The position numbers and the translations under genes are program-made. A model generated the notes under the pieces. That model was not told the origin of the DNA. It did not search any database and saw nothing but the letters and a program-made list of their open reading frames with translations. Below, one piece after another: positions 5,026-31,921 of a stretch of DNA of 35,146 bases (the stretch's first letter is position 1; the number at the start of each line of letters is the position of its first letter). Source of the DNA: a virus (taxonomy: Duplodnaviria > Heunggongvirae > Uroviricota > Caudoviricetes); the IMG/VR virus record IMGVR_UViG_2909309443_000004. The stretch is one strand, 5' to 3'.

Positions 5026-5102
5026 TTACCGTTGAGGTAATAATTATGCTTATTTGGTTTGGTGTCAATAGATATGAGTTAAAAAAATTACCCGTAAGGT
5101 AA
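5026..5102 (-). promoter_or_regulatory. leftward early promoter with two operator copies (OL-like)
   Basis: TTACCGTTGAGGTAA at 5026-5040 and TTACCCGTAAGGTAA at 5088-5102 flank a minus-strand -35 TTGACA (complement of 5063-5068). An AT-rich -10 region lies around 5041-5047. Confidence 0.65.
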
Positions 5103-5159: not shown

Positions 5160-5744
5160 TTATTGTTTGCTTTTTTCGTTCTGGTTGATGACAAATTCAA
5201 TGTAACTTTCGATCTTTGCCTTCTCTGTTTCAGGTAACAATGCGTAGCGCGAGCGGTCATAGTTGATAGTCGCGGGGTCGTGCGGGTGAATCAGTAATTC
5301 ATATCCGTGACGCCCAAATGCGGATGCAACATTCTCCAGGGTGGAAATGGAAACGCTGACCTCATTGTTTAACAGGCGGCTGATTGTTACCTGGGCGACG
5401 CCGGATGCGCGGTGAAGTTTTCCCTGCGTTGAAAGGTCGCGGCTTTCGCTCATCCAGCGTTCCAGGTTGTGAGCCGCCAGTTGACCAATGTCGCTTGGTC
5501 CGACAGGCTGAAAACCTTCCTGAGAAAGCGAGCGATCGATATCAAGCCAGTTACGGGGTTTATTGGCGGCAGCTTCAATTTTTCGCGCAACCTGGTCGCC
5601 GATAACCTTCTTGCCAAGAGCCCAGCGGTTTACCAGATTTGCCTGAGTTCCAAGTTTTTCAGCCATCCGCGTCTGAACACCATTGAATTCACGGTCGATC
5701 AAGTCGTTGAGATTTTGCCTGCGGACGTCCTGGATACTTTTCAT
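5160..5744 (-). CDS. prophage repressor with two HTH domains and no S24 peptidase domain
   Basis: 194 aa. N-terminal XRE-type HTH (TRMAEKLGTQANLVNRWALGKK) and a second HTH (LHRASGVAQVTISRLLNNEVSVS). No Ala-Gly / Ser..Lys autocleavage module. Divergent from a Cro-like gene across a triple operator. Confidence 0.82.
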   Translation of the reverse strand: MKSIQDVRRQNLNDLIDREFNGVQTRMAEKLGTQANLVNRWALGKKVIGDQVARKIEAAANKPRNWLDIDRSLSQEGFQPVGPSDIGQLAAHNLERWMSESRDLSTQGKLHRASGVAQVTISRLLNNEVSVSISTLENVASAFGRHGYELLIHPHDPATINYDRSRYALLPETEKAKIESYIEFVINQNEKSKQ

Positions 5745-5799: not shown

Positions 5800-5866
5800 T
5801 TACCCAACAGGTAAATGCACCTCATGGGTAACTATCCTTGATTTTTGTTACCTTATAGGTGAATAT
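5800..5866. promoter_or_regulatory. OR-like triple operator plus rightward promoter
   Basis: Operators: TTACCCAACAGGTAA (5800-5814), GCACCTCATGGGTAA (5817-5831, imperfect), TTACCTTATAGGTGA (5848-5862, one mismatch). Rightward promoter: TTGATT (5838-5843), 17-nt spacer, GAATAT (5861-5866), overlapping the third operator. Confidence 0.7.
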
Positions 5867-5898: not shown

Positions 5899-6129
5899 AT
5901 GAGCGATAACGGACATTTCGATTTCAAAAAGCACTGGCTTGCACTTACTCCGGATGAGCGTGAAGCCTTCGCACAGGAAGCCGGAACGACGAGTCACTAT
6001 ATCCAGACTCACTTAACAGGTAAGCGCAAAATGCCAGGTAAGGTATTGATGGATGGGCTTTTTAAAGCCTGTAAATCAAGACAATGGCTGCGCTCAAAAG
6101 CAGAACTGGCATACTTCTTCTACTCATGA
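5899..6129 (+). CDS. Cro-like / YdaS-type small HTH regulator
   Basis: 76 aa, divergent from the repressor. HTH-like segment EAFAQEAGTTSHYIQTHLTGKRK. Confidence 0.65.
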   Translation: MSDNGHFDFKKHWLALTPDEREAFAQEAGTTSHYIQTHLTGKRKMPGKVLMDGLFKACKSRQWLRSKAELAYFFYS

Positions 6130-6184: not shown

Positions 6185-6199
6185 GTACCTCAAGGGTAA
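6185..6199. promoter_or_regulatory. operator-like site (one mismatch)
   Basis: GTACCTCAAGGGTAA lies directly after the terminator and ahead of the replication genes. No convincing -35/-10 found around it. Confidence 0.4.
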
Positions 6200-6495: not shown

Positions 6496-7311
6496 ATGAG
6501 CAGACATGCAACAGATTGGGCCTGGGAGACAGATCCAGGTAGCTCGTCATTAAAGCTCATACTGCTCTCGATGGCTGACAGAGCCGATGAATATAACCTC
6601 TGCTACCCCAGCATAGAACGCCTCGTTAAAGACACTTGCCTGAATAAAAAAACCGTGCAGGCCGGACTTATATCGCTCATGAAAATGGGGCTTATTTCAG
6701 ATACCGGGGAGAGAAAGGGAGCGACAAAAAGAGTGCGGGTTTTCTCTCTTAATATAACCAAAAACGGGAACATTAAAGGCAACCGAGAGGGGGGCAATGA
6801 ACCCGAAAACGGTAATGTTACCGAAAACGGGAATATACCCAAAAACGGGATGTTGAATGATCCCAAAAACGGGATGTTGAATGATCCCAAAAACGGGATC
6901 CAGAACCAGTCATATAACCAGTCATTTAACCAAGAGAGGGAGAGCAGGACAAAAAACGGGGATTCTGTGCATCATGACCCCGGCGCAAACAACGCCGTGA
7001 TGAATAACTTTGTTCCTCCTGGTGGGCCAGGGCAATTAGGCAAATTTGTCATGCATGAACAATGGCAGCCATCAGATGACTTTCTTCGGAAAAGCTCATT
7101 GCAGGGGATCTACCTGGACAGTCTGCCAACGGCACAGGAACTTGCAGAGTTCAGAATTTACTGGATGGCTGAGGGTAAGGCATACCATCAGGCACAGTGG
7201 GAGCAGAAGCTGGCAAGGCGGCTGCAGATTAGCAGACAGAAGCAATCAACATTACCTGATAACAACGTTCCGCACTGGAACAGCCCTGAAGCATGGGAGG
7301 ATTTCTTGTGA
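6496..7311 (+). CDS. replication initiator (N-terminal HTH, internal iteron-encoded repeats, DnaT-like C-terminus)
   Basis: 271 aa. N-terminus LKLILLSMADRADEYNLCYPSIERLVKDTCLNKKTVQAGLISL. Central repeats ENGNVTENGNIPKNGMLNDPKNGMLNDPKNG. C-terminus WQPSDDFL..FRIYWMAEGKAYHQAQWEQKLARRLQ. Confidence 0.82.
   Translation: MSRHATDWAWETDPGSSSLKLILLSMADRADEYNLCYPSIERLVKDTCLNKKTVQAGLISLMKMGLISDTGERKGATKRVRVFSLNITKNGNIKGNREGGNEPENGNVTENGNIPKNGMLNDPKNGMLNDPKNGIQNQSYNQSFNQERESRTKNGDSVHHDPGANNAVMNNFVPPGGPGQLGKFVMHEQWQPSDDFLRKSSLQGIYLDSLPTAQELAEFRIYWMAEGKAYHQAQWEQKLARRLQISRQKQSTLPDNNVPHWNSPEAWEDFL
6757..6963 (+). repeat. origin-type iterons inside the initiator gene
   Basis: Seven copies of CC(A/G)AAAACGG(G/T)A at 6757, 6802, 6820, 6838, 6862, 6886 and 6948. 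These include a perfect 24-bp tandem duplication, CCCAAAAACGGGATGTTGAATGAT (6838-6861 and 6862-6885). Confidence 0.7.
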
Positions 7312-8093
7312 ACAACGTTTTTACCGCGATACAAAACCGTGACGGAGAAGCCCTTTCTCGCATGTCAGGTTATGAGCATCAGTACACCAACAATGACAAC
7401 GTAGTGAACATGTCAGCAGAGAGGCTTGTTGATGCCCTTTTCAAACAGTTGAAACAACTGTTTCCGGCGGCAGTGGTAACCAACCTGAAGACGCCAGAGC
7501 AGGAAGTTGCTGCAAAACAGCAGTGGATTGCTGCGTTTGCCGAAGGGGGGATCCGAACCCGTGAACAGGTTTCTGCTGGTATGCGCCACGCCCGCGCCAG
7601 TGAATCTCCGTTCTGGCCGTCGCCAGGGCAATTTATCAAGTGGTGTAAAGACAGCAAGATGGTTCTTGGCGTCACCATTGACGATGTGATGGCGGAGTTT
7701 CACCGGTACAGCAAGGAAAAAAGTTTATATCCTGGTGGTCCCGAAAGATTCCCGTGGCGGCATCCGGTTATGTACTGGGTCGTATGTGATACACGCCGTG
7801 CAATGTATCAGCGCCAGCTTAGCGAGATTGAGGTTGAGAAACACGCGCGCAGGCTGCTCGATGATTGGGCGAAAAAGGTGGCTTCCGGACAGCAGATACC
7901 CGATCCGGTGATCAGCATACAGGCAAAGCCAGAGCCCATGAGTACGCCTCCGGACACAGGGAGAGACGTTTACCATCCACCAGGGCGAAGTTTCGGGTGC
8001 ATGCCTAACGCCGCCACCCTTGGGGGAATAACACCGGCGCAGTGGCTGATGGAGGAATACAGGCGGGGAAAGGCGGCAGGATTTATCAAGTAA
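7308..8093 (+). CDS. lambda-P-like replicative helicase loader
   Basis: GTG at 7308 forms a GTGA overlap with the initiator stop, with GGAGG 6 nt upstream; alternative ATG at 7293. Collinear by eye with lambda P (QQWIAAFAEGGIRTREQVSAGMRHAR..FWPSPGQFIKWCK..SLYPGGPERFPWRHPVMYW). Confidence 0.85.
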   Translation: MNNVFTAIQNRDGEALSRMSGYEHQYTNNDNVVNMSAERLVDALFKQLKQLFPAAVVTNLKTPEQEVAAKQQWIAAFAEGGIRTREQVSAGMRHARASESPFWPSPGQFIKWCKDSKMVLGVTIDDVMAEFHRYSKEKSLYPGGPERFPWRHPVMYWVVCDTRRAMYQRQLSEIEVEKHARRLLDDWAKKVASGQQIPDPVISIQAKPEPMSTPPDTGRDVYHPPGRSFGCMPNAATLGGITPAQWLMEEYRRGKAAGFIK

Positions 8094-8130: not shown

Positions 8131-8207
8131 TTACCTGGAAGGTAATAAAATGTTCTAATCTCTATTGATTTCATGTCTTATGTGGTTTTTAATTACCTAA
8201 GGGGTAA
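8131..8207 (+). promoter_or_regulatory. promoter flanked by two perfect operators
   Basis: TTACCTGGAAGGTAA (8131-8145) and TTACCTAAGGGGTAA (8193-8207). TTGATT (8165-8170), 17-nt spacer, TTTAAT (8188-8193). The second operator covers the predicted start site and the RBS of the next ORF. Confidence 0.65.
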
Positions 8208-18733: not shown

Positions 18734-21246
18734 TGCCAGTCGTACCAACAGTATCCGGACGTCAGGTTGAGAGTCGTGGAGTTCAGTCAGCAGGCTTGCA
18801 GACGTTTTCTCAGCAAGGTATTGGTGATGCTTTTGTTCGGGCAGGGACAGAGGCAATTGATGTTTTGGGGCAGGCAAAACAGCGTGCCAATATCGCTCTG
18901 GCTCAGGAGGCATCTCTTAACCTCAGTCAGATAAGAAGCGATCTGCTGAATAATCCTGAAACAGGATTGCTTAACCTGAAAGGGAAAAATGCTATTGGAA
19001 AAGGCCATGAGTATACGCAGCAGTTTGATGCTCAGGTCGAACAACTGGCTATGTCGCTGCCGGATGAACAGGCTCGTAATGCTTTCATGCAGCAGGCGCA
19101 GCAGCAGCGCATTCAGTTCACTACGCAGGCCGGGCGACACGAGATAGGGCAAATTAATGCCTACGAAGAAGGCCAGTTTCAGGCGACACTGCTGAACAAT
19201 GGTAAAAATGCCGCAGCATTGTATGGCGACAACGCCGCATACGTATTGGCTAACAAGCAAACTTTCCAGCAAATTGAGGAGTACGGTGTTGCACATGGCT
19301 GGAGCAACGAGCAAATCCAGGCCAAGAAAATCGAGTTTAAAGAGAAGGTTGCTGATGCTGCATTGTCCCAGTGGTCGGCAAACAATGCGACCGCATTCAT
19401 CCAAAGTAATGGCGAGTTAAGTGATACTGCTGCTGGAGCTCGCCGTGCTGTAGCAGATAGTGACTCTTCCGAGCGTGCCCGTGGCATACGCAACAATAAC
19501 CCAGGAAATCTCGAATACAGCAAAACTAATCCGTGGGTAGGCCAGACCGGTGATGATGGTCGATTTGCTAAATTCGAAACACCTGAACACGGGATTCGTG
19601 CATTAGGGCGGAACCTGATGTCGTATCAGAGGCAGGGTATTGATACCGTCAGCGAGATAATTAATCGCTGGGCACCGCCTGCTGATAAAAATGACACTAT
19701 GTCGTATATCAAAGCAGTGTGCGAACAACTTGGCGTTTCTGCTGATGAGCCTCTCGATGCATCTAATCCTGATACCCTGAAGGCGCTTTGTGCAGCCATT
19801 ATCCATCATGAGAACGGTAGCCAGCCATACAGTGATCAGCAGTTAACTGCTGGTGTCAGTGCAGCACTTGGTTTATCAACAATTCCAACCAACACCAAAC
19901 GCTATACCGGTAATGCAGCATTCGATGCGGCATCTCCTGAGGCGCAGGCAAGTTTTATGCGACAGGCGGATCAACTGCGTCGGCAGCAGCAGGCTGAATA
20001 TAAAACGATGATTGACAGCCAGGTTCGCGATGCGACAGCTGCGTATATGCGTGGCGTTGAATTTCCTAACCCACCTGGTGAGGCTGATTTTATTGCAGCT
20101 TATGGCGTCAGAGAAGGAAACCTGCGATATACCGAGTTCAGAAATACGCAGATCGCCGGACAGTATATAGGCTCTTTCCGCAATATGCCGACAAGCAGCA
20201 TTACAGCATATGTTGAGCAATTACGCCCGGATACTGGTGAGACAGGGGAGGGGTATGCGGCACGCGCAGCTCTTTATGACAACGTTGTTTCGGCTGCAAA
20301 TCAGGTGATAAAGCAGCGGCAGTCGGATCCTGTGCAGTTCTCTCTTTCCTCCGGACAGGCAAAGCCTATCGACATGAGCAATAAGGATAACTTTGGACAG
20401 AGCGTTGCCTTGCGTGCTGCTCAGGTCAGTGACCTTGCTAAGTCATATGGCACTCCACTGACGTTCTTTTCCAAAGACGAGGCCAATCAAATCGGTGTTT
20501 TCTTTCGTGATGCGCCCGTTTCCCAACAGGCTGCATATCTCGATACCATCAGGCAAAGCACTGGTGGTGGGCAGGTGTATATGTCAGCACTACAGCAGAT
20601 CAGTGCCAACGCTCCATCTGCTGCCGTTGCCGGGATACTGATGGATAAGCCTGGTGGTATTTTGGCAGAAAAAAACTGGTTTAATCCGGATGTTTCCGTG
20701 TCTCCTGAAACCGCTGCGCAGACAATTCTTGCTGGCGCTGCGGCTCGTAAAGGTACTGATGATGCGAAAGGTATTCCGATGCCTAAAGATGCTGATCTTC
20801 GCCTTGAGTTTTCTGACATGGTGAAGGATGCATTTGCTGGTGACGCTCATGGGGCATCAATGGCATACGAGATCGCAAAGGATTATTACGCTGGTGTGAT
20901 GGCGAAAAAAGGCGTGGTATCAGGAGAAATTGACAATGATGTCTGGAAACAGGCTGTTAACGTAGCTACAGGTGGCGTGCATGACTATAACGGAATGGGG
21001 AATGTCCTTTTGCCGTGGGGAATGTCTGCAGAGCAATTCGATAAGCAGGTTAATCAGGCTTGGAATGAACAAGTTGTCGGCTCCGGGATAAAAACACCGC
21101 CTGGTCAGTATGGTTTGCAAAGTTACGGCGATAGTCAGTACCTGGTGAAACTTGGCGCTGGTTATCTGCTGAAAGATGATGGTTCTCCCGTTGTTCTTAA
21201 TCTGACACAGAAGCGTCAGAGATTCTCCGGAGATATTCCGCAATGA
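18733..21246 (+). CDS. internal virion / ejection protein with a putative cell-wall-hydrolase-type domain
   Basis: 837 aa from ATG 18733 (TAATG overlap). Conserved block RGIRNNNPGNLEYSKTNPWVGQ..FAKFETPEHGIRALGRNLMSYQRQG..IINRWAP at about 19480-19830. Confidence 0.65.
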   Translation: MPVVPTVSGRQVESRGVQSAGLQTFSQQGIGDAFVRAGTEAIDVLGQAKQRANIALAQEASLNLSQIRSDLLNNPETGLLNLKGKNAIGKGHEYTQQFDAQVEQLAMSLPDEQARNAFMQQAQQQRIQFTTQAGRHEIGQINAYEEGQFQATLLNNGKNAAALYGDNAAYVLANKQTFQQIEEYGVAHGWSNEQIQAKKIEFKEKVADAALSQWSANNATAFIQSNGELSDTAAGARRAVADSDSSERARGIRNNNPGNLEYSKTNPWVGQTGDDGRFAKFETPEHGIRALGRNLMSYQRQGIDTVSEIINRWAPPADKNDTMSYIKAVCEQLGVSADEPLDASNPDTLKALCAAIIHHENGSQPYSDQQLTAGVSAALGLSTIPTNTKRYTGNAAFDAASPEAQASFMRQADQLRRQQQAEYKTMIDSQVRDATAAYMRGVEFPNPPGEADFIAAYGVREGNLRYTEFRNTQIAGQYIGSFRNMPTSSITAYVEQLRPDTGETGEGYAARAALYDNVVSAANQVIKQRQSDPVQFSLSSGQAKPIDMSNKDNFGQSVALRAAQVSDLAKSYGTPLTFFSKDEANQIGVFFRDAPVSQQAAYLDTIRQSTGGGQVYMSALQQISANAPSAAVAGILMDKPGGILAEKNWFNPDVSVSPETAAQTILAGAAARKGTDDAKGIPMPKDADLRLEFSDMVKDAFAGDAHGASMAYEIAKDYYAGVMAKKGVVSGEIDNDVWKQAVNVATGGVHDYNGMGNVLLPWGMSAEQFDKQVNQAWNEQVVGSGIKTPPGQYGLQSYGDSQYLVKLGAGYLLKDDGSPVVLNLTQKRQRFSGDIPQ

Positions 21247-26304: not shown

Positions 26305-26748
26305 TTATTCTTCTTCTTCATCATTAAAAAGCGGATTGTTGTTTCCATCTGATGAAAGGAAAGGTATGTGTTCTCTTGAAAATCCAACAATGACAATTTC
26401 ATTATCATTTTTTGCATAATGAATGCATTCATTAGAATGCATTCCGCCAGGGTTGAAATTTAAGTTAATGGTATAATTCTTAAATGTGTTTGGATACCAT
26501 GTTGGCCCACAATGATAATGCCAATAATTCTCTTGCTCATAATTGTCTGAGCCTGGAATTTTATCATGGTTATCATCAACCCACGAGGGCTTGTTTTTTC
26601 CAACAAGCGCCCTTCCATTGGCAACATCCTCTAAAAACCTTTGTATGATTTTTATTTCATCATCAGTAAGGAAAGGTCCGTCTACAGCGAAAGGGGTGTT
26701 GCTTTCCCCATGTAGAAAACTATTAGATATTCTAATGTTAAACTTCAA
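26305..26748 (-). CDS. 147-aa protein of unknown function; weak by-eye resemblance to YafO-family toxins
   Basis: TTG start at 26748 with AGGAG 6-7 nt upstream. Visibly AT-rich. Segments YWHYHCGP..(25 aa)..HSNECIHYAKNDNEIVIVGFSREH recall the YafO pattern H-x-H-L..S-D-x-x-L-V-Y..H. Acidic tail NDEEEE. Confidence 0.55.
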   Translation of the reverse strand: MKFNIRISNSFLHGESNTPFAVDGPFLTDDEIKIIQRFLEDVANGRALVGKNKPSWVDDNHDKIPGSDNYEQENYWHYHCGPTWYPNTFKNYTINLNFNPGGMHSNECIHYAKNDNEIVIVGFSREHIPFLSSDGNNNPLFNDEEEE

Positions 26749-26768
26749 GGAAAACTCCTGATGTGCTT

Positions 26769-26936
26769 CTATTTGGAGCGAAATGCCGCCTTGAAGTCGC
26801 TAAAAGATGTTCCTGTCTGGTAAACCATATCCTTGTCGCGCTCTTTGCTTGCGCGACCAAGCATAACTTTTCCAATGACATCCCAGCATTGCTTGGCTTG
26901 TTCATTGTGCTGAGTACGATTTTTCAACGCTGTCAT
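26769..26936 (-). CDS. 55-aa protein, candidate partner/antitoxin of the 147-aa ORF
   Basis: Hand-translated: MTALKNRTQHNEQAKQCWDVIGKVMLGRASKERDKDMVYQTGTSFSDFKAAFRSK. Strong RBS AAAGGAGG 6 nt before the ATG at 26936. The stop is 20 nt before the TTG start of the next gene. Confidence 0.5.
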   Translation of the reverse strand: MTALKNRTQHNEQAKQCWDVIGKVMLGRASKERDKDMVYQTGTSFSDFKAAFRSK

Positions 26937-26948
26937 ATCGCGCCTCCT

Positions 26949-26992
26949 TTACCTTTAAGGTAATATTACGCGAATCTACATCACATCGCCAA
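26949..26992 (-). promoter_or_regulatory. operator plus candidate promoter of the AT-rich cassette
   Basis: Perfect TTACCTTTAAGGTAA (26949-26963) abuts a minus-strand -10 TAATAT (complement of 26963-26968). TTGGCG lies 18 nt upstream (complement of 26987-26992). Confidence 0.5.
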
Positions 26993-27005
26993 TGATTATT
27001 TTAAA

Positions 27006-27021
27006 GGCACATCCCTGTGCC
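27006..27021 (-). terminator. hairpin after the Bro-N gene
   Basis: Minus strand GGCACA-GGGA-TGTGCC followed by TTTAAAAT. The interrupted T-tract makes it weak. Confidence 0.4.
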
Positions 27022-27029
27022 GCCGCCCG

Positions 27030-27758
27030 TCAGAAGAACCCTGCCTTGTCGTTGATGTACTCCGCGTGGGTCTGGATATCACGCAGGCATTTGCTCACAC
27101 CGACGATGTAGCAGAACATGGTGGTCAGTTCCGCCGCCGCGCCCGATACGTCATGCCCGTCTTCCTGTAACTGGTTCAGCAAATTCATCAGCAGTGAGTT
27201 CTCCGTCAGGCCGAGAACACCAGACGGTGAATGAATCAGGCTACGGTAGCCGGGCTTCAGTGGGGCGCTGTAGGTTTTGTTCTCTATCTTCATTGCCTGC
27301 ATCACTGCTGATGCTGTGGCGTTGGCTACCTGGTCGGCAACCATCTTTATGCGTTCTTCTTGCGGGAGCGAGTTTTTAATGTAACTTCCGGTGCGGCGGA
27401 TCTGAGGAAGAACCTCACCTGTAACCCATTTACGAAAGCGGTATGGGATAGTGCCTGGTGTCACCGCATCGCGGCAGCGGAGGATCAGTGTGTAGAGGCC
27501 TGACTCGTTGATAATATTGGTTTCGCCTTGACGGCCTAAGTTAAATTTAGCCCTTTCATCATCATCAAGAGATTTTATTGACATAGTGGGGTTTGTCAGT
27601 TGAAGAGCTTTAATAACGTCTTTGGCAACAAACCAAGGATTAATCGCAAATCCAACTCTCCTCAGAGTTATAACGCTCAAACGCTTTACACATACTTTGT
27701 GTTGGTGCTGGAGGGCGTTCAAGGGCAGCCATGACTTGCTCCCAAACATCCTCTTCAA
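27030..27758 (-). CDS. Bro-N domain protein with an Ant-like C-terminal domain (start uncertain)
   Basis: Bro-N core NPWFVAKDVIKAL..ESGLYTLILRCRD..RFRKWVTGEVLPQIRRTGSY. The C-terminal 63 aa match the 28868-29125 protein at 28/63 identities (hand alignment). The track start is TTG 27758 and the first ATG is 27749, both inside the upstream RHH gene in another frame. The next in-frame ATG (27584) would cut the Bro-N domain. Confidence 0.7.
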   Translation of the reverse strand: MKRMFGSKSWLPLNALQHQHKVCVKRLSVITLRRVGFAINPWFVAKDVIKALQLTNPTMSIKSLDDDERAKFNLGRQGETNIINESGLYTLILRCRDAVTPGTIPYRFRKWVTGEVLPQIRRTGSYIKNSLPQEERIKMVADQVANATASAVMQAMKIENKTYSAPLKPGYRSLIHSPSGVLGLTENSLLMNLLNQLQEDGHDVSGAAAELTTMFCYIVGVSKCLRDIQTHAEYINDKAGFF

Positions 27759-27924
27759 CGATCAAGCGGCGATGTTCATTAATAACTGTTTCAGCTCTAA
27801 AAGTCGTAGACTCCATTACAAATTGAGATACGGACACTTTAGAAATAACAGCAGCTTCTTCGATACGGCGCTTCGCAGCTTCGGGCAGACGAAACTCGAA
27901 CCGCTCCTTTCTTACTGCGTTCAT
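27640..27924 (-). CDS. DUF1778/TacA-like ribbon-helix-helix protein (antitoxin-type) with no GNAT toxin partner
   Basis: 94 aa from ATG 27924 (AGGAG 5 nt upstream). RFEFRLPEAAKRRIEEAAVISKVSVSQFVMESTTFRAETVINEHRRLIVEEDVWEQVMAALERPPAPT is collinear by eye with TacA/DUF1778 antitoxins over the full length. Confidence 0.65.
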   Translation of the reverse strand: MNAVRKERFEFRLPEAAKRRIEEAAVISKVSVSQFVMESTTFRAETVINEHRRLIVEEDVWEQVMAALERPPAPTQSMCKAFERYNSEESWICD

Positions 27925-27988
27925 AACAACTCCTGAGCTAATGCTCACAGTGGTTTATACCACATAACGATATGCACGGTACGGGAAT

Positions 27989-28003
27989 TTACCGTACAGG
28001 TAA
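27989..28003. promoter_or_regulatory. operator copy upstream of the RHH/Bro-N genes
   Basis: Perfect TTACCGTACAGGTAA, 65 nt upstream of the RHH start. Confidence 0.6.
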
Positions 28004-28081
28004 TGATAAGCGCGAAGAAATATTAAAATCAACCTTATTTGGTTGATTGCGTTTAACGCTTGATCACCTGAAAGCAAGATA

Positions 28082-28096
28082 TTACCTTTAAGGTAA
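28082..28096. promoter_or_regulatory. operator copy upstream of the TM/zinc-ribbon gene
   Basis: Perfect TTACCTTTAAGGTAA, identical to the 26949 copy, 21 nt upstream of the ATG at 28117. Confidence 0.6.
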
Positions 28097-28116
28097 TGTT
28101 ATTGTGAGGAAAAGCA

Positions 28117-28845
28117 ATGGAAGTTTTCTGGATAGTTGTTGGTGTGGTTGCGGTGATTATTTACGTTATCAACCAGAACAAGACTAAGATCTCTGATCGT
28201 ACGGTCGTTAATCATAACAAAACGATAAAGACCGAAGATGGGGAGATAACGATTAATCGTACACAGGTGATAGAACACACCTCTACTCAGTTTCAAAAAA
28301 CTGGAGGTAATGCGCCTAATATTTCCGCACCTCCTGCTTATGATAGTGCGGTAATCCAGACATATTATAAACAGCAGGAGTTAGCAAAAGAGAGGCAACT
28401 GATTCAGCCAAAGCCGTTTACAACTGAGATTCCACCTGGAGTGTCAACGCGTCCGGCATATCATGGAAGATTCCCTGGTGATGACATATCGTCTCAGTCA
28501 TCTAAAAAAGCACCTCAGGCAATATCAGAGCCAGCAAGAATACCTTCTGTATCGCCGCAAAAAGAAGAATCAGCTAACAGAGTTTCAAGTGGTAGCAAGC
28601 AGTGCTTGCGATGCAGAATAAACCTTCCATATGAAAAATTCAGGAAATCGTCAAAAAATCCAGATGGATTGACTAAATGGTGTGCAAGGTGTCTCGATGG
28701 CCCAAAGAATACACGCCATATGAAGTGGTGCCCAATTTGTAATGTCCGCAGAAAACGAACCAGCTTTTACCCTAATAATCAAAATGCGGACGGCTTAATG
28801 GCATGGTGCAAAACGTGCTGGGATGAGCACAAAGCGAAACGATAG
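28117..28845 (+). CDS. membrane-anchored protein with two tandem Cys4 zinc-ribbon repeats
   Basis: 242 aa. N-terminal TM helix (VFWIVVGVVAVIIYVI) and a Pro/Ser/Gln-rich linker. C-terminal repeats CLRCRINLPYEKFRKSSKNPDGLTKWCARC and CPICNVRRKRTSFYPNNQNADGLMAWCKTC (C-x2-C..F..DGL..WC-x2-C). Confidence 0.75.
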   Translation: MEVFWIVVGVVAVIIYVINQNKTKISDRTVVNHNKTIKTEDGEITINRTQVIEHTSTQFQKTGGNAPNISAPPAYDSAVIQTYYKQQELAKERQLIQPKPFTTEIPPGVSTRPAYHGRFPGDDISSQSSKKAPQAISEPARIPSVSPQKEESANRVSSGSKQCLRCRINLPYEKFRKSSKNPDGLTKWCARCLDGPKNTRHMKWCPICNVRRKRTSFYPNNQNADGLMAWCKTCWDEHKAKR

Positions 28846-28861
28846 GCCGCTCTTGCGGCCT
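28844..28861 (+). terminator. hairpin terminator between convergent genes
   Basis: AGGCCGC-TCTT-GCGGCCT followed by TTAAATTT. Overlaps the stop codon of the 28117 gene. Confidence 0.5.
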
Positions 28862-28867
28862 TTAAAT

Positions 28868-29125
28868 TTACCGGGTTTGTTTTCGTAATTGTTCGGCACA
28901 ATAGTCGAGATGTGTTTGCAGATCCCGCATAGACATCTGTGAGCTGGTGACGTAGTTAATCAGTGCAGTCAGTTCGGCAAGTGGGCCATCGACATTAAAT
29001 CCATCCTTATCGAGATCCCGGAGTAATTTCATCAAGTGCGATCCCTCCACCAGTGACCTGACGCCTCCCGGCGTGTGAATCCTTTCGGTAAATCCGTCTT
29101 CCAGTGGATAGTGATACCGCTGCAT
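28868..29125 (-). CDS. ant: small antirepressor-like protein (85 aa) behind a LexA box
   Basis: ATG at 29125 with GGAG 8 nt upstream (the track start at 29143 is a TTG). Paralogous to the C-terminus of the Bro-N protein. The function call rests on the SOS box, the non-cleavable repressor and precedent in related phages. Confidence 0.6.
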   Translation of the reverse strand: MQRYHYPLEDGFTERIHTPGGVRSLVEGSHLMKLLRDLDKDGFNVDGPLAELTALINYVTSSQMSMRDLQTHLDYCAEQLRKQTR

Positions 29126-29144
29126 CTTATCTTCTCCATGCAAT

Positions 29145-29164
29145 AACTGTATATTTATACAGTA
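29145..29164. promoter_or_regulatory. LexA (SOS) box
   Basis: AACTGTATATTTATACAGTA matches the E. coli consensus TACTGTATATATATACAGTA at 18/20, with an intact CTG-N10-CAG. Lies 20-40 nt upstream of the ant start. Confidence 0.8.
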
Positions 29165-29201
29165 TCAAATAATTTGTTTGCTATCCAGCACGTTTTGCAA
29201 A

Positions 29202-29216
29202 TTACCCGAAAGGTAA
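29202..29216. promoter_or_regulatory. operator copy in the ant/tailspike divergent region
   Basis: Perfect TTACCCGAAAGGTAA. Confidence 0.6.
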
Positions 29217-29320
29217 TATCTATTCATATTCACAGCCTTTCTATCCATATGTGGTTTTTCAGGTAATAGAATAACCAGATATGCGGCGCAACGGGTGCTG
29301 CGACTATCTGGAGATTTAAC

Positions 29321-31921
29321 ATGACGGTCTCAACCGAAGTTGACCACAACGAATACACCGGTAACGGCGTTACGACATCATTTCCGTATACCTTCCGTAT
29401 TTTCAAAAAAACCGACCTGGTTGTTCAGGTGTCTGATCTGAACGGGAACGTAACAGAATTGGTTCTGGATACCGGTTATAAGGTAACTGGAGCGGGCACT
29501 TATAGTGGCGGTGAAGTGGTTCTCCCGTCGCCGCTTGCTGCTGGCTGGCGAATTACGATAGAGCGTGTGCTTGATGTGGTGCAGGAGACTGATCTTCGCA
29601 ATCAGGAAAAATTTTTCCCCGAAGTTCATGAAGATGCATTTGACTACCTGACGATGCTGATCCAGCGATGTTTTGGGTGGTTCAGACGTGCATTGATGAA
29701 ACCCTCGTTGCTTGCAAAATATTACGATGCAAAGCAAAACAGAATATCTAACCTTGCTGATCCATCACTTGAGCAGGACGCTGTAAATAATCGCTCAATG
29801 CGTAATTATGTCGATGCTGCAATCGCCGGGGTTGTTGGTGGTTTTGGTTGGTTTATTCAGTATGGTTCTGGAGCAGTATACCGAACGTTCCAGGATAAGA
29901 TGCGGGATGAAGTAAATATTCGTGATTTTGGAGCAGGAGATTCAGGTGAAGTTACAGATGCTATTTTGAAGGCTGTTGCAGCTACTAATGGCACCATTAT
30001 TATCCCGGATGGAAATTATGTTTCTACTCCAACAGTAACGCAGACTCCGAACGTTATGAAATTGCTTTCACGAGCAGAGTTTAGAGGTTCTTTGACCATC
30101 AATCTTCCTGTTGGAACTGTTAACCTATCAGAAAAGACGCTAATCAGATCACAAAATGTTCATAAACTTTCTATTTCTGGTATTACGTATTCAACTACGC
30201 TAACTGGCTTAGTGGGTGTATCTGGTATCCCCAAATCATACCTAGTTACGCTCTCTCTGGCTGATGCTTCAAACGTTTCTGTAGGCGACGTCGTGATGAT
30301 TCGTCACGATATAACGGGGACAGGAGGATATCACATCCATTGTGGCGGATGGGTTGTGACTGCCGTGTCTGGCAAAAATGTTACCGTAAAAAACACCTGC
30401 CACCTGTCTGAATTACCAACGTCAACGATTACAGGCGGAACAGTAGTCATACTAAAAAGTATTCTGAGATATGCCGGATGTGATGGGATTGTGGCTGCAG
30501 GTGCTGGGTGCATTAAGACAATAAACGGTGTCGCAATTGTTGGTGATTATGACCTTGTGGCCGGCACTGGAACTATTGGTGCGCATGGTTTCTCCCTCAC
30601 TACTCCAGACATTACTGTTGCCATCCCAGACCCATCCAACGTGGTTTTTGATGCGTCAGGATGTATAGCAATTGGGCCTGATCTGGCGATCGTTGGGTTC
30701 GGAGAACAGGGGGTCGTGGCTTCAGAAAGATCTGGTGTGGTTTCAAACTTTATATCTTCATGCTCTAACCGCAAGCGCGGTGTATATTCTGAAGGCGCTC
30801 ATATACGCGGTAAATTTATGCTTTGCTCAGGGAATGGTGAGGATGGGATTATTGCTGATATTGGTGGCGCAATACAGGCTAACGGATCAGTTTGCTCTGG
30901 CAATGGGTTGAATGGGTTCTGGTCTTTTAATCATAGTTTTTTGGGGGCACCAGGGGGGATTGCGTGCGGTAACTATACCAATGGTGGTGAATCACGCGGA
31001 CCAGGTGCATTAAATCTGCAAAATGGGAAGAGCTATTTAAACAGGCTAATTGGTGTAACCGCTTCAAATAGCGGTGCAGTTATTTTCACTAACTCAACTG
31101 CCACACAAAATGGCACGGATGGTCTGGTTGCTGTTTACGATGGCTTAATATCTGCCGCCAATGCCAATTCAACGAGCAACGGTCGCTATGGGGTTAACGT
31201 AACTCACGCAAAAATTGTGCTTAAAGGCTCTGGAGGAGTGACTGGTAACACAACGGGAGATTACATCGATAACGGCGAGGGCACAATAATCAAGCCAGAT
31301 GGTACTATGCTGCCGAGGAATGCTGGCCCGCAAAGCATCCTTTCTATTCGTAACGCCAATCTTTCCGGTGCTGATGTCACGGCATCATCAATAGGCGATC
31401 TCACCGTCTCGCAAAGAAACACATCCTCGGGTGCATTAACCCCCCTGTATGTATTCAAATCTGACGGAACCCAGCATCCAGTCAATGACGCCACGCAGAA
31501 CCTTGGCAGGGCAAGCAATCGCTACAATGTTGGTTTCTTCGCTGGCGGAACACAGTCAACTTCAGATGCCACACTTAAAGACCCTATCCGGGAGTTCAAT
31601 CAGGCCGAACTCAATGCAGCAATGCGCATCTCGAAAATGTTTGGATTCTGGACGTGGCTTGATGATGACAGTAAGCGTTTGCATGCAGGGACTACGGTTC
31701 AAGCAGTGTTAGCTGTTCTGGAAGAGGAAGGTCTAGACTGGCGGAGCTATGGATTTATCTGTTTTGATGAGTGGGATGATGAATATACCCCGGTAACCAT
31801 TGAGGTAGATGGCGAAGTCGTTGAAACTGGCGAACTGCAATTAGTACGTGAGTCTGGTTCTGTATGGCAATTACGCGATCAGGAATTTGACAGATTCGTG
31901 ATGCGTGGACTTTCCGAATGA
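29321..31921 (+). CDS. tailspike: conserved N-terminal particle-binding domain, beta-helix enzyme domain, C-terminal S74-type intramolecular chaperone
   Basis: 866 aa. N-terminus TEVDHNEYTGNGVTTSFPYTFRIF. Pectate-lyase-type start DFGAGDSGEVTDAILKAVAATNGTIIIPDGNYV. C-terminus LGRASNRYNVGFFAGGTQSTSDATLKD (S-D-x-x-x-K), with Ser748 at 31562-31564. Confidence 0.85.
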   Translation: MTVSTEVDHNEYTGNGVTTSFPYTFRIFKKTDLVVQVSDLNGNVTELVLDTGYKVTGAGTYSGGEVVLPSPLAAGWRITIERVLDVVQETDLRNQEKFFPEVHEDAFDYLTMLIQRCFGWFRRALMKPSLLAKYYDAKQNRISNLADPSLEQDAVNNRSMRNYVDAAIAGVVGGFGWFIQYGSGAVYRTFQDKMRDEVNIRDFGAGDSGEVTDAILKAVAATNGTIIIPDGNYVSTPTVTQTPNVMKLLSRAEFRGSLTINLPVGTVNLSEKTLIRSQNVHKLSISGITYSTTLTGLVGVSGIPKSYLVTLSLADASNVSVGDVVMIRHDITGTGGYHIHCGGWVVTAVSGKNVTVKNTCHLSELPTSTITGGTVVILKSILRYAGCDGIVAAGAGCIKTINGVAIVGDYDLVAGTGTIGAHGFSLTTPDITVAIPDPSNVVFDASGCIAIGPDLAIVGFGEQGVVASERSGVVSNFISSCSNRKRGVYSEGAHIRGKFMLCSGNGEDGIIADIGGAIQANGSVCSGNGLNGFWSFNHSFLGAPGGIACGNYTNGGESRGPGALNLQNGKSYLNRLIGVTASNSGAVIFTNSTATQNGTDGLVAVYDGLISAANANSTSNGRYGVNVTHAKIVLKGSGGVTGNTTGDYIDNGEGTIIKPDGTMLPRNAGPQSILSIRNANLSGADVTASSIGDLTVSQRNTSSGALTPLYVFKSDGTQHPVNDATQNLGRASNRYNVGFFAGGTQSTSDATLKDPIREFNQAELNAAMRISKMFGFWTWLDDDSKRLHAGTTVQAVLAVLEEEGLDWRSYGFICFDEWDDEYTPVTIEVDGEVVETGELQLVRESGSVWQLRDQEFDRFVMRGLSE

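Follow-up and report, generated by a model that had tools for sequence, protein, structure and literature searches.

A very probable SPC32H-type LexA/Ant/Rep antirepression switch in a phiV10-like Uetakevirus prophage of Escherichia coli

The switch of the Uetakevirus phage SPC32H has reportedly been solved both genetically, by Kim & Ryu in 2013 (J Virol 87:11775), and structurally, by Kim et al. in 2016 (PNAS 113:E2480; PDB 5D4Z and 5D50). According to a review of Kim & Ryu 2013 and related work (PMC7380047), a LexA-controlled antirepressor inactivates the lytic repressor by protein-protein contact during the SOS response, with no cleavage of the repressor. A second source, citing Kim et al. 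2016 (PMC9638917), states that Rep binds DNA as a tetramer, which is broken up by an Ant tetramer that binds two Rep dimers. The N-terminal part of SPC32H Rep is DNA-binding, and its C-terminal region holds a tetramerisation domain that is also Ant-binding (PMC9986798; PDB 5D4Z, 5D50). In the Escherichia phage ZX5, mitomycin C brings about an induction of about 100-fold, and the repressor turns off lytic transcription and blocks lytic growth (PMC9782041).

Here we analysed a stretch of viral DNA of 35,146 nucleotides (the window), in which a sequence-only reading had pointed to a LexA box in front of a small Ant-like gene. The region was 95–98% identical to the Escherichia phages TL-2011b, phiV10, PAS61, ZX5 and others and 76–78% identical to Salmonella epsilon15-like phages, identities that place the window in a Uetakevirus (epsilon15-like) prophage; we read it as a phiV10/TL-2011b-type Uetakevirus prophage of E. 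coli. Judged from its sequence, this prophage very probably carries an SPC32H-type LexA/Ant/Rep antirepression switch. The products of its rep and ant genes were 99.5% (Rep) and 97.6% (Ant) identical to those of ZX5. As in SPC32H, ant is found between genes for internal virion proteins and a divergent tailspike gene, a long way from the immunity region; an insertion of accessory genes adjoins ant on the side away from the tailspike gene. No RNA genes were detected in the window by an Rfam search at gathering thresholds or by a tRNA scan. The coordinates of the features discussed below are collected in Table 1.

Table 1. Features of the predicted switch and of its surroundings, in window coordinates.
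Feature	Position	Strand	Basis and remarks
Two operators downstream of rep, head of leftward early operon	5026-5040, 5088-5102 (span 5026..5102)	n/a	Motif scan
rep, 194-aa prophage repressor	5160..5744	minus	Pfam, PDB; N-terminal HTH, C-terminal HTH_3-like domain and tetramerisation tail, no S24
O_R-type operator cluster, rep/cro-like gap	5800-5814, weak 5817-5831, 5848-5862 (span 5800..5862)	n/a	Motif scan
cro-like gene, divergent from rep	5899..6129	plus	phrog_35 'transcriptional repressor', E 8.7e-13
Bro-N protein, 242 aa	27030..27758	minus	BLASTP, phrog, Pfam; C-terminal ~80 aa (about 27030-27275) Ant-like
Two Rep operators upstream of the TacA-like/Bro-N pair and of the divergent 28117 gene	27989-28003, 28082-28096 (span 27989..28096)	n/a	Motif scan
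ant, 85-aa antirepressor, ortholog of SPC32H Ant	28868..29125	minus	phmmer against PDB and alignment
Shine-Dalgarno GGAG	29134..29137	minus	Read from the sequence; 8 nt 5' of ant ATG
LexA (SOS) box AACTGTATATTTATACAGTA	29145-29164	n/a	Consensus match 18/20 and conservation
Predicted P_ant: -35 TGGATA 29187-29182, 17-nt spacer, extended -10 TG-A-TACTGT 29167-29159	29159..29187	minus	By hand, from the sequence
Rep operator copy TTACCCGAAAGGTAA	29202..29216	n/a	Core of 17-bp palindrome ATTACCCGAAAGGTAAT, 29201-29217, in the ant/tailspike gap
Tailspike gene, 866 aa, divergent from ant	29321..31921	plus	N-terminal 166 aa 66% identical to SPC32H tailspike; relatives so annotated

The small gene that the sequence-only reading had called Ant-like proved to be an ortholog of the characterised SPC32H antirepressor. 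In a phmmer search against PDB, residues 2-84 of its 85-aa product matched 5D50 chain E, 'Anti-repressor protein', at E 3.5e-46; the protein in this chain is SPC32H Ant, encoded at the same genomic position in KC911856 by a gene with the annotation 'ant' / 'anti-repressor protein'. Global alignment of the two proteins gave 74 identical positions of 86 (86–87%), and the window gene thus codes for a homolog of SPC32H Ant of the expected small size (~86 aa). Its ATG at 29125 is identical in position to the annotated start of SPC32H ant, its stop falls at 28868, and GGAGA is kept upstream of ant in 7/9 aligned phages. A dN/dS of 0.06 between the window and SPC32H genes, with synonymous sites near saturation, indicates that ant is a real gene under purifying selection. 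All of the phage records that encode Ant also encode a Rep homolog (35/35).

The protein family itself is poorly served by current models. Ant matched phrog_450 at E 1e-47, which PHROGs lists as 'unknown function', and none of the Pfam and NCBIfam models matched the 85-aa protein above threshold. Neither a Bro-N (PF02498) nor a KilAC (ANT) domain was found in it by Pfam search, and among Bro-N proteins only the C-terminal domain is common to the 85-aa Ant.

We then turned to the site in front of this gene. At 18/20 positions AACTGTATATTTATACAGTA agrees with the E. coli SOS-box consensus TACTGTATATATATACAGTA, and its near edge (29145) lies 20 nt from the first base of the ant ATG and 157 nt from the tailspike ATG; the sequence-only reading had given the same match and the same distance from the start of the ORF, with all coordinates correct. 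AACTGTATATTTATACAGTA was the sole site in the 35-kb window within three mismatches of the consensus (≤3), and a LexA-like site of this quality arose in none of the dinucleotide-preserving shuffles of the window (0/100), so that the near-consensus box reported earlier is real. A looser scan (≤6 mismatches, CTG and CAG arms kept) again returned AACTGTATATTTATACAGTA alone in the window, and found one LexA box per genome in SPC32H and epsilon15, at the homologous position. The window box corresponds in position to the SPC32H box at 19956, from which it differs by a slightly different spacer and by a closer match to the consensus (18/20, as against 17/20 in SPC32H). At the sequence level, the ant promoter therefore has a LexA box as in the SPC32H module, and we infer that LexA binds at 29145-29164.

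The conservation of this arrangement was assessed in an alignment of the ant-tailspike gap from nine phages of Escherichia, Salmonella, Enterobacter and Klebsiella. With a mean column identity of 74%, the invariant columns of this alignment formed three blocks: the operator half-sites (ATTACC, GGT), TGGA.A, and T.TG.TA.TGT joined to ATACAGT, the last two motifs together making up the LexA box. The right arm of the box, ATACAGT, was invariant (9/9 phages), and the left arm was TACTGT in seven phages (hosts E. coli, Salmonella and Enterobacter) and TATATGT in the other two, both from Klebsiella. The -35 and -10 elements and their 17-nt spacing were kept in all nine phages (9/9) and in further genera of a species-dereplicated genome scan, which we used to reach diversity beyond the phage alignment. 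In that scan, an operator and a box or box-like site occurred at the same distances from the ant ATG in prophages of Citrobacter (2 species), Ca. Erwinia dacicola, Pseudocitrobacter, Scandinavium, Superficieibacter, Kluyvera and Klebsiella (counted as 8 further genera). About ten enterobacterial genera thus have phages or prophages that keep the spacing of box, operator and gene, and the arrangement noticed in the window from its letters is conserved at fixed positions across the genus. In the same genome scan, a 35%-identical homolog of Morganella and a Bro-N fusion in Nitrosomonas did not show this arrangement. A scan of IMG/VR with the Ant alignment was also run; its best 80 relatives were all 98–100% identical to the query, and among these the box was kept in 79/80, with variation almost entirely in the central spacer.

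One variant of the box was seen in a clade that includes Klebsiella, Superficieibacter and Kluyvera relatives (5 in number), in which the left arm reads ATGT for CTGT (TATATGTATATATATACAGTA), ~40 nt upstream of ant. This change weakens the LexA half-site and improves the predicted -10 (TATATG), and LexA repression of ant may be less tight in these relatives.

The motif TTACC-N5-GGTAA was enriched in the window, with 11 sites within one mismatch against 0.62 expected, a number that no shuffle reached. The copy that the sequence-only reading had placed at 29202-29216, in the same gap as the LexA box, is present as one of these 11 sites, and its homolog in epsilon15 is annotated 'protein_bind: repressor' in GenBank AY150271. 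The epsilon15 record marks 'repressor' binding sites at the corresponding positions elsewhere as well, and it annotates an IHF site beside this gap operator. The sites cluster around rep, at 5026 and 5088 downstream of the gene, at 5800 and 5848 toward cro, and at 6185 past cro. Between the two sites toward cro, a weaker one with two mismatches (5817-5831) was read from the sequence, and the resulting spacing of 17 and 31 nt mirrors that of the SPC32H sites 34390, 34407 and 34437. The pair at 5026 and 5088 is syntenic with the operator clusters downstream of rep in epsilon15 and SPC32H.

Perfect operators were also found outside the immunity region, at 8131-8145, 8193-8207, 26949-26963, 27989-28003 and 28082-28096. 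The first two lie downstream of a replication gene (7293-8093) and are syntenic with SPC32H 35972 and 36034. The other three are held by the accessory-gene island, so that accessory-looking genes would be repressed by Rep in the lysogen. The operator at 27989-28003 abuts the -10 of a promoter predicted by the promoter scan (TTGATT-18-TATCAT, 28032 to 28003, minus strand), and neither of the two LexA scans of the window found a box near the operators at 27989-28096. The 28117-28845 gene (plus strand), which has a Rep operator 20 nt upstream of its ATG, encodes a 242-aa protein with an N-terminal hydrophobic helix and repeated C-terminal CxxC motifs resembling zinc ribbons; this protein matched phrog_6762 at E 1e-148 and gave weak endonuclease VII and Stc1 matches, and the homologous region of TL-2011b carries only a misc_feature. 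A TacA-like antitoxin ORF (27640-27948, minus strand; PF08681, E 2.8e-19) is an orphan with no adjoining TacT toxin gene, and its overlap with the Bro-N ORF suggests a recombination scar in the accessory region.

The Bro-N protein of this island shares its C-terminal domain with Ant. BLASTP aligned the two at 42% identity over 76 aa (E 2e-16), the C-terminus of the Bro-N protein matched phrog_450 at E 4.8e-36 and its N-terminus matched Bro-N at E 6.7e-18, and 20 alignment columns were invariant across the small Ants and the Bro-N C-terminal domains. Upstream of the Bro-N gene there are Rep operators and no LexA box, in the window as in TL-2011b, Tyrion and phiV10. From about residue 87 to the C-terminus (~155 aa), the window protein is identical to the vB_EcoP_ZX5 ORF4 product, 'anti-repressor', the over-expression of which as a GST fusion brought lysogens down about 1000-fold and rep transcription down by 75% (PMC9782041). 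It is this Bro-N protein that the same paper calls the antirepressor, and the small ant gene, LexA and SPC32H go unmentioned there (PMC9782041). The 27030-27758 protein is possibly a second antirepressor. On a two-tier reading, these features would make LexA-gated Ant only the trigger, and the Rep-gated Bro-N protein, produced as Rep begins to give way, a positive-feedback latch or the main antirepressor in E. coli phages of the clade. We regard this reading as rather doubtful, since SPC32H and epsilon15 switch with no Bro-N gene, the phiV10 protein has lost its Ant-like domain by truncation, and the evidence from ZX5 is GST-fusion over-expression only. The window copy may moreover be impaired, because its N-terminal ~85 aa are unlike those of its relatives and its ORF overlaps the TacA-like ORF by ~110 nt. 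A wider proposal, that the clade has two differently wired Ant-domain proteins, one a LexA-gated damage sensor and the other a Rep-gated commitment latch, and that the paralog could cross-induce prophages, seems to us unlikely. The same proposal would let Ant work on heteroimmune Uetakevirus prophages, in view of its 87% conservation against the 43% to which Rep has fallen. We keep to the SPC32H-type switch, with the 85-aa Ant as the antirepressor of Rep, as the preferred reading.

With a -10 that agrees with the consensus at only 3/6 positions, the ant promoter fell below the threshold of a consensus promoter scan of 26700-29400; the one predicted by hand from conserved elements relies on the extended -10 TG. 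The left arm of the LexA box forms its -10, with the predicted start near 29152. We accordingly place the ant promoter here on the strength of the sequence, as a prediction. The centre of the gap operator is ~57 bp upstream of this predicted start and 14 nt beyond the -35, and the operator therefore lies outside the predicted ant promoter. Dual control of ant by LexA and Rep, which the sequence-only reading had suggested, is possible; the operator may act via looping by a Rep tetramer, or it may instead serve a divergent tailspike promoter.

That ant adjoins the tailspike gene, as had been noted, is borne out by the 866-aa ORF on the other side of the gap, whose N-terminal similarity to the SPC32H tailspike is given in Table 1. 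A candidate tailspike promoter, 29244-29272 on the plus strand, combines a conserved TAGAAT (29267-29272) with a poor -35 (TCCATA). Adjoining this TAGAAT, which faces the tailspike gene, are a GGTAA half-site and a CATAT..GGTTT block, both conserved.

These elements bear on whether the LexA box, the gap operator or both regulate the tailspike gene and not ant. The tailspike gene needs a promoter of its own because ant interrupts the late operon, the operator centre lies beyond the predicted ant promoter, and the conserved TAGAAT with the GGTAA half-site before it is oriented toward the tailspike. The LexA box, on the other hand, is 20 nt from the ATG of ant and 157 nt from that of the tailspike gene, it overlaps a conserved -10-like element facing ant, and in SPC32H the reported LexA target is ant (PMC7380047). 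Control of the tailspike gene in place of ant is on balance quite unlikely as a whole; taken separately, it is plausible for the operator and unlikely for the LexA box. The reading that we prefer remains the one in which LexA controls ant.

The target of Ant would be the product of rep. Residues 1-190 of this protein matched 5D50 chain A, 'Repressor', at E 3.5e-42, and its C-terminal half matched 5D4Z (C-terminal domain) at E 3.6e-20. Pfam gave HTH_3 (E 1.2e-9) in two stretches, the best at 106-147, and a second HTH-type model at 21-61, and it confirmed both parts of the earlier description of a repressor with two HTH domains and no S24 module. The notion that the duplicated domain was peculiar to this allele did not hold: SPC32H Rep has the same architecture, and we rejected the two HTH domains as a novel duplication. 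Identity to SPC32H Rep was 42.7% overall, with 50% for the N-terminal and 40% for the C-terminal domain; in the last ~40 residues, the part that holds the tetramerisation and Ant-binding domain, it was higher, ~54% as counted by eye. The window protein was also 99.5–100% identical to phiV10-type repressors (phiV10, ZX5, HEMP4 and others). Rep is thus an SPC32H Rep homolog with an N-terminal HTH, a C-terminal tetramerisation/Ant-binding region and no autocleavage domain.

Inactivation of Rep by RecA-stimulated self-cleavage or by a partner protease, with Ant dispensable, is extremely improbable, since the HMM check that had been proposed for a cryptic S24 domain gave no Peptidase_S24 match in the 194-aa Rep even at E≤1 (Pfam), its sequence holds neither an Ala-Gly (AG) nor a Cys-Gly (CG) dipeptide, and all 194 residues are accounted for by homology to SPC32H Rep. 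Rep accordingly does not have the makeup of a self-cleaving repressor of the lambda CI or LexA type, with a Ser-Lys peptidase and an Ala-Gly site, and a cryptic S24 domain or other protease route, for which nothing was found in favour, was rejected.

The preferred, SPC32H-type scheme would run as follows. In the lysogen, Rep (5160-5744) would silence the lytic promoters through its TTACC-N5-GGTAA operators, and host LexA on 29145-29164 would overlap the -10 and start region of ant and occlude RNA polymerase. Upon DNA damage, active RecA would lead LexA, not Rep, to cleave itself, and the 85-aa Ant would be made. As homology to the 5D50 complex leads one to expect, Ant would then bind Rep in its C-terminal region and split the DNA-binding Rep tetramer into dimers, so that the operators would be released from Rep and the prophage induced. 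The Ant-Rep interaction is extrapolated here to a Rep allele that is 43% identical to that of SPC32H.

The mechanism is already known, and we found nothing mechanistically new; the sequence-only reading had likewise judged it probably not new, and a switch of this kind was indeed already known in the same genus, in SPC32H. The practical value of the locus is an annotation fix and a pointer to a second Ant-domain protein. Phages of the phiV10 type serve as O157 reporter and typing phages, and it is therefore useful to know the gene for their SOS-inducibility. The Ant family has neither a Pfam nor an NCBIfam model and is of 'unknown function' in PHROGs, which accounts for the PGAP label 'hypothetical protein'. 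We found the 453-bp ant locus in 531 of 5,426 complete E. coli genomes (~10%), with 100% identity in O6:H16 strains, and in those genomes ant was always annotated 'hypothetical protein'; the gene so labelled is probably the one that triggers induction. The antirepressor role has been given to a different gene in at least one study, that on ZX5, the only paper that we found on an E. coli phage of this clade (PMC9782041).

Among described systems, SPC32H is the closest in kind. Both phages belong to the genus Uetakevirus, and they share an ant gene divergent from the tailspike gene, an Ant of 86–87% identity, a full-length Rep homolog, operators with TTACC-N5-GGTAA half-sites and a single LexA box at the same distance from the ATG. 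The window differs from SPC32H in its Rep, which is only 42.7% identical and is an allele common to the E. coli phages of the clade, and in ~3.3 kb of accessory genes that separate ant from the internal virion protein gene, among them the gene for the Bro-N protein with its Ant-like domain, which SPC32H lacks. With phiV10, TL-2011b and ZX5 the likeness is closer still (Rep 99–100% and Ant 96.5–98.8% identical, intergenic region nearly identical), and in the records of these phages the small ant gene is a 'hypothetical protein'.

In 186 and in Gifsy and Fels-2 (Shearwin 1998; Lemire 2011), the antirepressor gene sits at a different genomic location. These are functional analogues, compared here for their logic alone, in which a non-cleavable repressor is paired with a small LexA-silenced antirepressor gene; the sequence-only reading had taken such logic as established for 186 Tum, Gifsy prophages and SPC32H, and the review agrees (PMC7380047). 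As for antirepressors of the P22 Ant, Bro-N and KilA type, Bro-N 'anti-repressor' families (phrog_130, phrog_1760) have the fold of the small Ant as their C-terminal domain, whereas no Bro-N or KilAC domain is present in the 85-aa Ant. Control differs as well, being exerted by Mnt and Arc over P22 Ant and by LexA over the 85-aa Ant.
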